A DNA stretch of 12,839 nt from Candidatus Odinarchaeia archaeon (GCA_029856525.1 JAHQXC010000034.1:1-12839), one strand, 5' to 3'. Shown: positions 5,876 through 10,175, counted from the stretch's first letter. The notes: generated from the sequence alone by a model not told the origin. Made by a program: numbers and translations.

Positions 5876-6289
5876 TTATATTGTTAAGAGTTTCCCTCGT
5901 ATTCTTTCAATAAGCTTGCTTCTCGATGGGAATATAGGGTTAGAAATTTTTTCAACACTCGCCGTTTGAGAGAAGAATGATGCGGCTAAATATTTTTTAA
6001 GTTTTCTTAAGCCTTGATCCGTGAATTTATAGACTGCTTTAGTTCTCCTACTGTGGCCGAGTTTTGTCTGAGAGAGAAACACGCATATTTCTTGACCAGC
6101 CCATTCTTTTAGGAGATCTCTTATTTTTTTATGAATTTTAGGGAAAAAAGTCGGTTTAATATTTTTAGAGTTAGCTATTTCTCTGGCTATTCTAGAACTT
6201 GTGAAAACATATGTATTATATAAAGTGTTAAGTTTTATAATGAGGTAAGCGGTTTCAAATATTATCTCATCTAATGGTATCTGGCTCAT
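5876..6289 (-). CDS. Winged helix-turn-helix protein (PadR/MarR-like wing)
   Basis: 137-aa ORF with ATG preceded by GGAGACGGTG, 15 nt after the upstream stop. Pattern FTSSRIAREIA...IHKKIRDLLKEW...VFLSQ...RRTKAVYKFTDQGLRKL resembles a wHTH with an RR-x-x-x-Y-x-x-T-x-x-G wing. Confidence 0.72.
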   Translation of the reverse strand: MSQIPLDEIIFETAYLIIKLNTLYNTYVFTSSRIAREIANSKNIKPTFFPKIHKKIRDLLKEWAGQEICVFLSQTKLGHSRRTKAVYKFTDQGLRKLKKYLAASFFSQTASVEKISNPIFPSRSKLIERIRGKLLTI

Positions 6290-6304
6290 AACACCGTCTC
6301 CGAT

Positions 6305-7390
6305 CTACTCGTATCCCTCCATTAAAAGCTCTAAGTGGCGTATCGCTTGTTTTTGATCGATTAAACCTTCATTCCATTTCTGTCTTATAATATCTATGAG
6401 ATACTCGGGGAAAAATTGGATAAATAATATATGGGAGATTAGACAAACCCATTCCTGCCCGTTGTCATCGGATATGATTCTGATAAGATTTTTCTCCTGA
6501 AGTCTGTTAACTATCTTTTTAATTTGAGTTTCTGGAATATTAAAAGAAGAGTATAACTCACTTTTTAAAACAGGTTTAGATCTTAACACTCTTATTATAT
6601 TATATGTATCCGGGTCAGCTACAAGAGTTGATAGCTCGGAGATATCTTCAGCGCTAGGATTATAGGTTGAAAAAAATTTTTCAACTTCTTGAAGATATTT
6701 CGCTGATATTTGAGGGTTTAAAACACCTTTTTTAGAGGCTGAGATCAACTCTTTAACAGGGGCTCTTAACGCGAAAACGTCTTTGATTAAGAATATGCAT
6801 TCGTCTGTAATCCCTTCCACGAAAGATGTGCGAACTAAACCTGTTTTTATGAAAGGTGATAGAGCTGCGTTAAGATCGGTTACATCCATGTTTTTATGTT
6901 CTTTAAGCCAGTCGATGAGTTCACGTCTAGTTACACTTCCCTCCGTTAACCTTGAAAGGATAGCCACTCGAAGAGGATCGCTGAATATTAACGCTAACCG
7001 TTGCTCGGCTTCTATAACAGGGGTTTTCGTTATTCTCTCATATTCGCGGACCACTATTTCATAGAATCCGGGTGTTTTAAATTTCTCTAAAATGTTAACA
7101 GCGACTTCGACAAGTATCTCTTCGAATAATTCAGGGTCTTCGTCTCGCTCAAGTATGAGTGAAACACAAAACTGTCCTATTTCACCTTTTAAAACCCCGG
7201 AATAATAGCTGGCTACATTTAAATCCTCTATTTTCATGCTGAGAAAACCTTGCGTAACATCGCCTAAAGTATGAGTGGTGAAAATACGCATTACATGATC
7301 ATCGCTTACCTGTAATTCAGGCGGATATTTAGCTTCCACGATCGCGCCTAGTTTATCATCCCATCTAATTATAATTAAACCTTTAGGCAT
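6305..7390 (-). CDS. Longin/uDENN-like domain + two tandem winged-helix domains (NPRL2/NPRL3-like architecture)
   Basis: Start moved to the ATG at 7390 (MPKGL..., 361 aa) because the 19 extra codons in the ORF track run through AT-rich promoter-like DNA. N-terminal LIIIRWDDKLGAIVEAKYP matches the uDENN/longin opening hairpin (FD-x-x-x-GP-x-x-x-x-x-YP type). Two WH repeats begin DPLRVAIL and DPDTYNII. Confidence 0.82.
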   Translation of the reverse strand: MPKGLIIIRWDDKLGAIVEAKYPPELQVSDDHVMRIFTTHTLGDVTQGFLSMKIEDLNVASYYSGVLKGEIGQFCVSLILERDEDPELFEEILVEVAVNILEKFKTPGFYEIVVREYERITKTPVIEAEQRLALIFSDPLRVAILSRLTEGSVTRRELIDWLKEHKNMDVTDLNAALSPFIKTGLVRTSFVEGITDECIFLIKDVFALRAPVKELISASKKGVLNPQISAKYLQEVEKFFSTYNPSAEDISELSTLVADPDTYNIIRVLRSKPVLKSELYSSFNIPETQIKKIVNRLQEKNLIRIISDDNGQEWVCLISHILFIQFFPEYLIDIIRQKWNEGLIDQKQAIRHLELLMEGYE

Positions 7391-7433
7391 TATTCCACTT
7401 CGCAGTGTTATTATTTTAAAATTTAGAAAATTA

Positions 7434-8147: not shown

Positions 8148-8157
8148 CCTATAGAAT

Positions 8158-8928
8158 TTATTCTATAAGGTATCTCCCCGGGTTTGCGTTTATTTCCTTT
8201 ACCACGTTTTCAAATTCTTTCAAAACCTCGGTTATAAAATTCGGTGGAGATGTATCTGTGATCTCGATTGTTTTTTCAACAATAACCCAATCTTCAAGAT
8301 TACTCGCAGATTTTAACGGCTTCAAGTATTTTTCATCAGCTCGAAGAAGATTCATATTATTTTTAAACACATCTTTTTTTATAAAATCCACTAGGCTAGA
8401 AAATATTTTACGGTAGCCGCCGGATAGCAGAAATCTAGCTATTTCAGCAGGAGATAAAGCTCTCACAGATATTTTAAACTCTTCTTCCTCCTCATCTAAT
8501 ATTAAAGGGATCGACCCCTTAGGTTTAATCTCACCTATTTTTCTTTCAAATAAAGCTTGACCTCTCTTCCTAATCACTCTTCGAATTTTAGTTATAATCT
8601 GCTCGGTATCAGCGTTACCGTAAGGGTCGATTATATCCGGGTTCATTAAATCTATTAACGGTATTTCCATGTTGGGTCTAAGCTCTGTAGCGTCTAATAT
8701 CACTGCGATTACAGGCTCCATTATGTTAACAGGATGTTCTTTAATAACCCCCTTACCGGCTAAAACACCCGGGCCTATAAACATTGAACGAGCTTCATTA
8801 TTTCTAAGAATAGTCCATAATTGCTCTGAGATTACTAGTAGCTTGCCTTGAAAGTCGAGTTTACCATAGCTTAAAGATAAACCTGGGATTAGAGAATCTA
8901 CCAGCCATATTAAAGGCGGCATGCTCAC
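8158..8928 (-). CDS. Hypothetical protein, possible divergent longin-like N-terminal domain
   Basis: 256-aa ORF whose GTG start overlaps the upstream TGA (GTGA overlap at 8925-8928; alternative ATG at 8922). It ends 10 nt before the JAMM gene. Fold assignment is by secondary-structure pattern only. Confidence 0.8.
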   Translation of the reverse strand: MSMPPLIWLVDSLIPGLSLSYGKLDFQGKLLVISEQLWTILRNNEARSMFIGPGVLAGKGVIKEHPVNIMEPVIAVILDATELRPNMEIPLIDLMNPDIIDPYGNADTEQIITKIRRVIRKRGQALFERKIGEIKPKGSIPLILDEEEEEFKISVRALSPAEIARFLLSGGYRKIFSSLVDFIKKDVFKNNMNLLRADEKYLKPLKSASNLEDWVIVEKTIEITDTSPPNFITEVLKEFENVVKEINANPGRYLIE

Positions 8929-10175
8929 TCACTATGCTCGTTGATTAAATGTTTCATAAAATATTCTGAGATTTTTTTAATTACGTGTTCGCGTGGAAGA
9001 GGTTGTTTAATATTTAAATAATCGTATAATTCTTTTTCAGAAACCTGGGGTGGAATACTCGCCGATGCCTGTTTATTATAATCTGCATAGATTACTTCAG
9101 CAAGCTGAGTTCTATTCAGCGGATGATGGTTGAAGCGCTTTAATATTTCGGTTATCATAGTGTAGGCTACTTCAAGCGGATTAGCTATTTCATAATTCAT
9201 GTTTTTAAAAACTTTAGTCACTGTTTTCAACAGAAAATCTTGGCGTTCAAGTTCAGGTCTCTTTCTAGCAAGGATTATATCACGTTCTAAAAAGTCTATA
9301 GGTGATTTAAGATCAGGGCCGATAAGCCCGTTACGGGTTACAGGCGCGTGAATGATAAGTATATTAGAAGAAGCTGCCGCGTTTAACTCAGGTTTTACCC
9401 TAGGAATAGCTTGAAGGAGAACATGAGCTAGTGTACTTGGAGGCATCTCTTTTAATGGTTTAAGAAGGCTTCTACGTATCTCGATGATCTGAATTTTAGT
9501 TTGAACACCTCCCTCTTCAATATTTATTTTCTCGGTTAAAACATCTAAGTTGAAGAAAAACATTTTAGCCGAGTTAACCGCGGCGATTAAGATTTTATAC
9601 GCATCCCTTGGATCTGCTTTTATGATAGGGGAGAGGAGGGCTGTTGCAGCGTGAATTTGATTTAAATTATCGTGTTCCTTAATCCATTTCTCAATGAGAG
9701 GAATTATATAATTATCTATTAAATTAATTCTCGAGTTAAGTAAATCTGCGATCTTCTCTAGCGGCGGAGCGGCGTCGGATTCTATTGAAAGCTCGGTGTT
9801 TATTAAAGGTCGAAGTTTATCTTCAAGTATATACTTGAATTTACCGTAAAGGAATTGAAGCCACGCCCCCTCTCTGGCCGCGAAGTTGAACATGTAAGTG
9901 GGGGTTTCAGGGATTGGGGTCCCAGCTTCTTCATATATCTTCATTAGCCAGGTAAGGTAATTATAGGTTTGATTGGGGTTTAGCTTATTCTCCAGCTCTA
10001 AAATATAGATTACTTTACATAAATCTGTGTTTAATTTGAACTCTTCTATTATTTCAGCTATTTGGGTTAGATTTACTCTGGAAAGTCTCTCCTTGAAATC
10101 GTATTTTTTCTCAAATTCGGCGGCAAGTTCCCTAGCTAACGTGTATTTTGTGTGCGAGGGGGTTTCAAATTGCAT
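8925..10175 (-). CDS. Hypothetical, predominantly alpha-helical protein
   Basis: 416-aa ORF with ATG preceded by AAGTGATAAT and its own TATA/BRE; coupled to the next gene. No family recognised, and no signal peptide or TM seen. Confidence 0.85.
   Translation of the reverse strand: MQFETPSHTKYTLARELAAEFEKKYDFKERLSRVNLTQIAEIIEEFKLNTDLCKVIYILELENKLNPNQTYNYLTWLMKIYEEAGTPIPETPTYMFNFAAREGAWLQFLYGKFKYILEDKLRPLINTELSIESDAAPPLEKIADLLNSRINLIDNYIIPLIEKWIKEHDNLNQIHAATALLSPIIKADPRDAYKILIAAVNSAKMFFFNLDVLTEKINIEEGGVQTKIQIIEIRRSLLKPLKEMPPSTLAHVLLQAIPRVKPELNAAASSNILIIHAPVTRNGLIGPDLKSPIDFLERDIILARKRPELERQDFLLKTVTKVFKNMNYEIANPLEVAYTMITEILKRFNHHPLNRTQLAEVIYADYNKQASASIPPQVSEKELYDYLNIKQPLPREHVIKKISEYFMKHLINEHSE

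Follow-up and report, generated by a model that had tools for sequence, protein, structure and literature searches.

Two probably separate Asgard gene modules, one around a tail-anchored Rpn11-like JAMM enzyme and one around a putative longin-like adaptor, adjoin at an Odinarchaeial locus

The contig JAHQXC010000034.1 of a Candidatus Odinarchaeia archaeon (GCA_029856525.1) carries on its minus strand a row of six genes, here called P1, P2, JAMM, P4, P5 and P6, the third of which encodes a predicted JAMM-type deubiquitinase with a transmembrane (TM) anchor and the last a large receptor-like surface protein. The window, that is the whole stretch of DNA analysed, is this entire contig (C47, 12,839 bases) of a 1.32 Mb genome that is 93% complete (G000), and the closest named relatives of its proteins belong to Candidatus Odinarchaeum yellowstonii LCB_4 and to other Odinarchaeia. 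The locus probably consists of two independently conserved, Asgard-specific modules that adjoin each other and do not form one dedicated complex. Module A would comprise P1, P2 and the JAMM protein, the latter being a tail-anchored, Rpn11-like putative zinc isopeptidase that faces the cytoplasm, and module B would comprise P4, P5 and P6. A first-pass annotation had proposed a single membrane-tethered complex coupling GTPase signalling to ubiquitin-like editing of surface proteins; the gene order on which it drew is indeed conserved, but the cluster splits into separable units and the single complex is left unsupported.

The six genes are P1 (10175-8928, 416 amino acids (aa)), P2 (8928-8161 from a GTG start, 256 aa, or from the ATG at 8922, 254 aa, which is the start of the database gene calls), JAMM (8147-7491, 219 aa), P4 (7390-6308, 361 aa), P5 (6289-5879, 137 aa) and P6 (5483-831, 1551 aa). 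The open reading frames (ORFs) confirm the five co-oriented genes first described, with gaps from P1 to P5 of -4 (+2 with the ATG start of P2), 10, 97 and 15 nt. Conservation of this order in relatives, on which the first reading had been staked, was found: the order P1 to P6 is intact in G001-G003, within the genus, and in G005, which belongs to another family of the Odin order, and is thus kept in two Odin-order families.

Beyond this order, the two halves of the row follow separate paths. The P2 and JAMM counts refer to a sample of 121 Asgard genomes from 23 families (f numbers), and the count of P1-P2 adjacency to 40 relatives. P2 is a single-copy gene in 51 of the 121 genomes and in 9 of the 23 families. 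Nine families have both P1 and P2; in seven of these the two genes adjoin and often overlap. P1, P2 and JAMM occur together in f1, f2, f12, f15 and f19. Wherever P2 and the full-length, tail-anchored JAMM type are both present, they lie within 3.5 kb of each other (18/18 genomes; three in f1, one in f2, seven in f12, two in f15 and five in f19). JAMM abuts P2 on the same strand in f1, f2 and f19, while the two genes are separated by a helicase gene in f12 and by an aminotransferase gene in f15. P1-P2 is therefore the invariant core and JAMM its regular companion where both exist. In f6, P1-P2 occurs without this JAMM type (0/27) and without the P4-P5-receptor set, and in f3, f7 and f8 JAMM occurs without P2. 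P4, P5 and a surface protein gene are found together in f1, f2 and f13. In the last of these, the Njordarchaeales, P1-P2 adjoins the P4-P5-receptor set without JAMM, and a small paralogue of the P4 N-domain stands in its place. Both gene sets lie side by side with JAMM in the Odin order only.

The upstream elements divide the row as well. A BRE/TATA-like element (transcription factor B recognition element and TATA box), AAAAAATTTATAAG, lies at 10207..10220 on the minus strand, 32 nt before the ATG of P1, and is kept in G000, G001 and G002, that is across three Odinarchaeum genomes. A TATA-like element in the gap between JAMM and P4 (7453..7484, minus) is kept in four Odin genomes and is likely an internal promoter for P4-P5; in G002 it still adjoins P4 despite about 240 nt inserted 3' of the JAMM stop. 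Finally, P6 is preceded by its own promoter-like element AAGTAAGATATTTATACACTGTAAAAAA (5505..5534, minus), strongly conserved in four Odin genomes. The proposal that one BRE/TATA serves five genes is therefore incomplete: the element upstream of P1 is conserved as proposed, but P4 and P6 have conserved elements of their own. The most likely layout predicted from these elements is one unit of P1-P2-JAMM, a start of its own for P4-P5 with possible read-through, and a separate P6. Together with the patterns in f6, in f3, f7 and f8 and in f13, the separate elements before P4 and P6 make modules A and B separable. A search of sequencing runs listed no RNA run with this stretch, solely the likely source metagenome.

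The JAMM protein matches the Pfam family JAB (PF01398) with an expect value (E) of 8.3e-15 and 55.1 bits, the cut-off being 22.5. Its closest solved relative is CsRpn11 (6FJU/6FJV; E 7e-21, residues 5-151), and chains of the AMSH family are also among its sequence matches, with E about 1e-9. The metal-binding motif H85-T-H87-x8-S96-x2-D99 is encoded at 7851..7895 (minus) and the general-base Glu26 at 8070-8072; E26, H85, H87, S96 and D99 are invariant across 11 orthologues, with a spacing from the second His to Ser of x8 rather than x7 in 10 of them. The C-terminal TM tail anchor (7491..7565, minus) has a best 19-residue hydropathy window of 2.65, and a C-terminal hydrophobic helix is present in 10/11 orthologues. 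A TM-anchored JAMM protein, as first annotated, is hence confirmed by the family match, the catalytic set and the hydrophobic helix.

A genome-wide search with the JAB and Prok-JAB profiles gave no second match besides this gene. The genome does contain a ubiquitin operon on another contig (L058, G000:C72:1-2864), with genes for a RING-like protein (894-1139), ubiquitin (1143-1406), an E2 (1480-1842) and an E1 with a ubiquitin-like C-terminal end (1821-2846). The ubiquitin ends in ...RTEGGKPDTRGGSVL, so that residues continue past the first Gly-Gly as a C-terminal extension, and no protease gene is present in the operon. CsRpn11 is reported to process such a ubiquitin precursor and to deubiquitinate substrates (PMC6043591). 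Because JAMM is the sole JAB gene, the operon lacks a protease, the ubiquitin is extended and CsRpn11 provides a precedent, the JAMM protein appears to be the general ubiquitin protease of this organism, held at the membrane by its tail. It would trim the extended ubiquitin precursor and remove ubiquitin from membrane substrates. If the enzyme is a general one, its reservation for the receptor next to it becomes less credible. As a separate observation, upstream of the ubiquitin operon and on the opposite strand lie a UEV/E2-like gene and a coiled-coil gene.

P1 and P2, the proposed partners of the enzyme, form an obligate pair of orphans. The AlphaFold2 (AF2) model of P1, with a mean predicted local distance difference test (pLDDT) of 82, contains helices only and no strands. 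Its sequence gave no match in PDB, Pfam or NCBIfam beyond a helical hairpin, and the description of P1 as a helical orphan therefore holds. A conserved motif, D294-F-L-E-R-D, follows a disordered loop (residues 264-283), and the protein is represented by just 37 clusters among 1.8 billion representatives. The model of P2 has a pLDDT of 79, or about 90 over residues 1-80. Longin topology is beta-beta-alpha-beta-beta-beta-alpha, with a helix required between strands 2 and 3. The N-part of the P2 model is all-beta, with no helix in residues 1-155 and none before residue 158, and it has no clear counterpart among known folds. P2, first annotated as a putative longin, is not a longin in the AF2 model. 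Fold searches with P2 found no clear match in any library, and no family match was obtained with Pfam, NCBIfam or PDB profiles. The P2 family has 15 invariant columns (alignment A1) and a conserved proline-rich segment, TELRP..PVPLVDI..PEVIDP, located in a low-confidence part of the model. ESM Atlas feature searches with P1 and P2 gave no usable match. A complex prediction of P1 and P2 with JAMM residues 1-190 scored 0.00 for JAMM as partner, a value that is without controls and counts as evidence neither way. P1 and P2 may scaffold or regulate the enzyme.

In family f16, P1 is about 657 aa long owing to an N-terminal extension of about 280 aa (L055:2887-4860, L056:439-2409, P0067), and the P2 gene is located elsewhere than P1. 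The extension has a strand-strand-helix-strand pattern and weak matches to Longin, to SRP-alpha_N (longin/SRX) and to winged-helix families, with E about 0.05-0.09. Its comparison with the P4 N-domain by hhalign was not significant, and BLASTP against P4 gave no match.

Several other genes recur around module A. In families without P1-P2, the neighbours of JAMM are housekeeping genes (tRNA synthetases, CBS, CLC), with no other conserved partner. In L035, L042 and L033 an AAA_16 ATPase gene accompanies a gene of the Roadblock/LC7 family, which L035:1453-2043 matches in Pfam with E 1.3e-13; the loci concerned are L035:1453-2046, L042:13305-14012 and L025:2308-2949. ORFs of the same cluster lie beside JAMM in f12, 3.1 kb away in f15, and 7.5 kb from JAMM, beyond P6, in Odin LCB_4. 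In f6 and f12 P1-P2 regularly has as its neighbour the gene for a DEAD-box helicase, about 860 aa long and carrying DUF5814 at its C-terminus (L040:10179-12746, L035:2845-5418, L042:9849-12428).

Module B is built around P4, whose N-domain (7016..7390, minus; residues 1-125) is longin-like in our reading of its sequence. The domain holds a W10-D11-x3-G15 motif, encoded at 7343-7363, in which W10 and G15, along with P23, are invariant in alignments A3 and A8, and D11 is nearly so. The W-D-x3-G spacing equals that of C9orf72 (W33-D34...G38-P39). At position 16 P4 has Ala, whereas several small paralogues have Pro and thus G-P there, so that the match to the WD/GP motifs is partial. Residues W33-D34 and G38-P39 are essential in C9orf72; the WD and GP motifs lie in the hairpin of beta1 and beta2, and longin motifs of the GTPase-activating protein (GAP) type recur in Asgard longins (PMC12290439). 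The order of strands and helices was read by eye from alignment A3, and the domain gave no Pfam or PDB sequence match. A feature search with it offered one lead, an Asgard cluster with NPR2 in 19% of its members; the Pfam NPR2 profile (PF06218) matched nothing in any of 41 Asgard genomes and is hence uninformative.

The C-terminal part of P4 (6308..7015, minus) contains two winged-helix-like units, one at residues ~130-200 and the other at ~245-320, as well as a conserved helical region at the C-terminus. The second unit is matched by the NCBIfam ArsR/SmtB profile HTH_metalloreg (E 2e-5) and by Pfam HVO_A0261_N (4e-4) and TrmB (7e-3), all below the curated cut-offs, and residues 246-323 match many ArsR/MarR chains of the PDB with E 0.0035-0.1, the lowest value falling at 251-315. 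For the first unit the matches are weak, with E 0.02-0.6. Of the longin followed by two winged helices that had been annotated, the second winged helix thus has profile support, while the first unit has just weak matches. The isoelectric point (pI) of P4 is 5.0 overall and 5.1-6.8 in the winged-helix parts. P4 belongs to a multi-copy Asgard family, of which its own genome has two full-length copies and three N-domain-only genes.

P5, first described as a winged-helix protein, is small and basic (137 aa, pI 10.2), and its gene adjoins P4 in f1, f2 and f13; a P5-like gene also lies near a P4-like gene in a Lokiarchaeote. Neither P5 nor its seven-member alignment gave a match in Pfam, NCBIfam or PDB. 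Downstream on the same strand, P6 (831..5483) is the receptor-like surface protein of the first-pass annotation and proved to be of type I, with a signal peptide, a large ectodomain showing weak immunoglobulin-like and prealbumin-like matches, one TM helix and a cytoplasmic tail of 203 aa. P6 orthologues come after P5 in f1 and f2, whereas in f13 this place is taken by an analogous protein.

The surface proteins supply the strongest evidence for module B. The TM helix of P6 (1440-1502) is followed by a juxtamembrane motif, R-K-P-S-Q-I-R-K-I (1386-1412; together 1386..1502, minus). As aligned in A5, the motif reads basic residue, x, Pro, x2, I/V, K/R, K, I, with further conserved positions downstream. 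It is common to P6, to the otherwise unrelated surface protein c17 and to Njordarchaeal surface proteins; the tails of P6 and c17 have a second motif in common (E 2e-4), and the ectodomains of the paired surface proteins are unrelated. In the genome itself just two ORFs combine a TM helix with the motif, namely P6 and, at the end of C20, the orthologue of c17, and these flank the two full-length P4-family genes. In closed genomes, full-length P4 paralogues stand beside a motif-bearing surface gene in 2/2 cases in G002, 2/2 in G017 and 3/3 in G027, and in G040 none of four weaker motif matches lies beside a P4 paralogue; the motif was defined from these same proteins, and the whole-genome scans are the real test. 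P6 would thus act as a receptor-like protein whose juxtamembrane motif recruits P4, together with P5. A third Odin surface protein, of 677 aa, carries the motif and has no adjoining P4-family gene (L070:4120-6153 = G002:C1:207119-209152); the ORF just upstream of it resembles the N-terminal part of P6 (E 4e-22).

The P4 family is repeatedly found beside genes of small GTPases. A tight operon of the Njordarchaeales starts with a receptor gene and a P4 paralogue; next come the genes for an Arf-like GTPase fused to a longin (Pfam Arf, E 1.7e-23) and for a coiled-coil protein. Two further Njord loci have a divergent GTPase beside P4 and a receptor. In f7 and f19 a P4-like gene is followed by the same GTPase. 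A stretch of 5 kb on a Lokiarchaeote contig holds the genes for a P4-TPR protein, a longin-like protein, a GTPase of 458 aa and a P5-like protein. In a phylogenetic tree, the P4 of the window groups with the second Odin-order family, sister to the TPR forms of Hel and Loki, and the GTPase-linked genes of f7 and f19 fall in a different P4 subfamily. The GTPase link therefore holds for the family, by association, and is not established for this copy. The coupling to GTPase signalling that had been proposed thus gains support from gene context for the P4 family, whose members have Arf-like genes beside them in f7, f13, f19 and a Lokiarchaeote, but not from any gene near the locus of the window. 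With its putative GAP-type longin-like domain and its winged helices, P4 may be an adaptor that acts on an Arf/Rag-like small GTPase encoded elsewhere, for which the longin-fused GTPase of C85 is a candidate. The Njord operon ends with a gene (L068:10399-11118, 239 aa) that has weak winged-helix matches, and its product may have a P5-like role.

Endosomal sorting complex required for transport (ESCRT) genes do not adjoin the locus. The gene at 12215-12835, first described as similar to the C-terminal domain of Vps28, matches VPS28 (PF03997) with E 0.033-0.066 and 12.8-14.4 bits, below the cut-off of 24.5, over 36 of the 188 profile positions (146-181). That identification is not confirmed, and the real Vps28 of the genome is C85:232-780 (48.7 bits); in the closed Odin genome it lies about 830 kb from the locus. 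The orthologue of the longin-fused Arf-like GTPase (C85:5734-6573) is about 5 kb from this real Vps28.

Both modules can be set beside known systems. CsRpn11 is the Rpn11-like JAMM protein of the ubiquitin operon of Caldiarchaeum subterraneum (PMC6043591). The JAMM protein of the window has the same catalytic Glu, HxH, Ser and Asp; it too is a stand-alone MPN+ enzyme, with no gene for an MPN- partner, and comes from an archaeon whose ubiquitin system is of the eukaryote type. Unlike CsRpn11, it ends in a TM anchor and is one residue longer from the second His to Ser, and its gene lies outside the ubiquitin operon, beside two orphan genes. It is similar to AMSH/STAMBP, which belongs with ESCRT-0/III at endosomes, in being a predicted JAMM deubiquitinase at the membrane of an organism that possesses both ubiquitin and ESCRT. 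Soluble AMSH is brought in via MIT and SBM motifs, whereas the protein of the window is anchored by its own TM tail and no ESCRT gene is nearby. Ubiquitin-ESCRT proteins of Odin have been described (PMC9192718). An Rpn11/CSN5-like MPN+ gene beside genes for helical and winged-helix proteins is also reminiscent of the proteasome lid, the COP9 signalosome (CSN) and eIF3. A PCI-MPN arrangement as in the lid and CSN was rejected: there is no second MPN gene, P1 is all-helical without a beta wing or a PCI match, and P2 is not MPN-like; fold searches with P1 and P2 listed no PCI or MPN chain, a result that alone is inconclusive. The literature searched holds no description of a tail-anchored Rpn11-like enzyme with these orphan partners.

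On the side of module B, P4 is similar to C9orf72-SMCR8, FLCN-FNIP and the NPRL2-NPRL3 pair of GATOR1 in having W-D-x3-G at the C9orf72 spacing followed by winged-helix-like units, and its paralogues lie beside Arf-like GTPase genes in several Asgard lineages. It differs from these complexes in lacking profile matches to the NPR2, Folliculin and Longin families and a DENN or NPRL C-domain, and no arginine finger was identified in its sequence. We know of no eukaryotic counterpart for the pairing with surface proteins that bear a juxtamembrane motif, and the literature searched holds no description of such a receptor-motif/longin-adaptor pairing. 'NPRL2-like longins' have been reported in Asgard archaea (bioRxiv 10.1101/2020.10.19.343400), as have structures of Asgard GTPase and roadblock proteins (PMC10933270).

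Several points weigh against two separate modules as proposed here. P1-P2 adjoins module B in two lineages, the Odin order and the Njordarchaeales, which hints at a link, and the P1 extension of f16 has its weak longin and winged-helix matches. The profiles of the P4 N-domain reached no solved longin, and its fold rests on a reading of the sequence. In the closed Odin genome no small-GTPase gene is found within about 45 kb of the locus. The SAM (S-adenosylmethionine) synthetase gene is also a conserved neighbour of P1 in f1, f12 and f15, and some of the synteny may therefore be inherited order without function. Moreover, the support consists of gene context and motifs, from which binding and activity are predicted.

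The first two of these points belong equally to the reading of the locus as one membrane-tethered complex, in which a longin platform couples a small GTPase to ubiquitin editing of a surface protein by JAMM as a form of proto-endosomal cargo sorting. It would also account for the six-gene order kept in the two Odin-order families, for the membrane anchor of the JAMM protein and for the ubiquitin and ESCRT genes of the organism. Nevertheless this reading is unlikely, as JAMM and P4 are neighbours in the Odin order only, P4 has its separate TATA-like element, the JAMM-P4 gap takes an insertion in G002 and P2 is not a longin in its model. In addition, JAMM, as the sole JAB gene of the genome, likely encodes a general enzyme, P4 paralogues pair with receptors at loci without JAMM or P1-P2, and the f16 extension shows no significant hhalign similarity to the P4 N-domain. 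Within module A, the position of JAMM next to P1-P2 might reflect inherited gene order without functional meaning, with P1-P2 engaged in an unrelated process. The SAM synthetase gene, surely unrelated, is likewise a conserved divergent neighbour of P1; in f12 and f15 the unrelated helicase and aminotransferase genes separate P2 from JAMM on the other strand; f6 has P1-P2 without such a JAMM, and f3, f7 and f8 have JAMM alone. We give this reading little probability in view of the 18/18 genomes from five families in which the genes are at most 3.5 kb apart at about 30% protein identity, of the same-strand abutting in f1, f2 and f19, and of the other JAMM neighbours, which are not conserved outside the pairing with P1-P2.

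P4 and P5 could also be ordinary DNA-binding winged-helix transcription regulators of the adjacent surface gene, with the P4 N-domain as a sensor; the pairing with surface genes would in that case be a matter of local control rather than of contact between the proteins. The second winged helix matches regulators of the ArsR/SmtB, MarR and TrmB types, one paralogue fuses a P4-type N-domain to a TrmB domain that scores above the Pfam cut-off, and distant homologues are named ArsR-family regulators by two sources. P5 is strongly basic, and regulator genes often adjoin their targets. Against this, P4 is acidic even in its winged-helix parts, the paired surface proteins, with their unrelated ectodomains, have a cytoplasmic protein motif in common, several lineages have GTPase genes beside the pairs, and the WD-x3-G signature of the N-domain resembles that of GAP-type longins. 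A role as regulators is thus improbable, and two adjoining modules, with any crosstalk between A and B conjectural, remain the preferred explanation.

The rest of the contig comprises the SAM synthetase gene, which diverges from P1, and genes for proteins of the fumarylacetoacetase family, with a PHP domain and with a coiled coil; Rfam and tRNA scans of the window gave no match. The PHP-domain gene (11612-12184, minus) is open for about 190 codons and 84% identical to a 191-aa protein of G002, with no ATG, GTG or TTG near its 5' end; its first canonical start would yield 95 aa only, and an unusual start codon or a damaged start is possible. Between P5 and the promoter-like element of P6 lie about 300 nt of extra intergenic DNA (5556-5875), the spacer between P5 and that element being shorter, 93-130 nt, in G001-G003. 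The extra DNA has no second copy in the genome, no Rfam match and no long ORF. The insertion of about 240 nt in the JAMM-P4 gap of G002 (L025:10124-10461) is comparable.

Asgard archaea are rich in eukaryote-like GTPases, longins and ubiquitin/ESCRT parts, and the pairing of a regulator with its GTPase is seldom readable from genome layout according to Tran et al. (PMC10933270). The locus and its relatives offer matched sets from a thermophile, namely a motif-bearing receptor-like protein, a C9orf72/NPRL-like adaptor and, in sister lineages, an Arf-like GTPase. Each module is a new arrangement around known kinds of parts, and it is their functional steps that we infer. It is very unlikely, though of consequence if true, that P1-P2 is a bridge by which the only membrane-anchored deubiquitinase of the cell reaches receptor-longin-GTPase modules. 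In that case GTPases at an archaeal membrane would control both the attachment of ubiquitin to surface receptors and its removal, which would represent a working forerunner of eukaryotic ubiquitin-dependent receptor sorting, with an NPRL/C9orf72-type longin in its ancestral setting. For module A itself, the single Rpn11-like enzyme of the genome is membrane-anchored, and its gene invariably accompanies those of two proteins without a known fold where these exist; this association of JAMM with P1-P2 suggests a means, so far undescribed, of positioning or regulating deubiquitination at the membrane.

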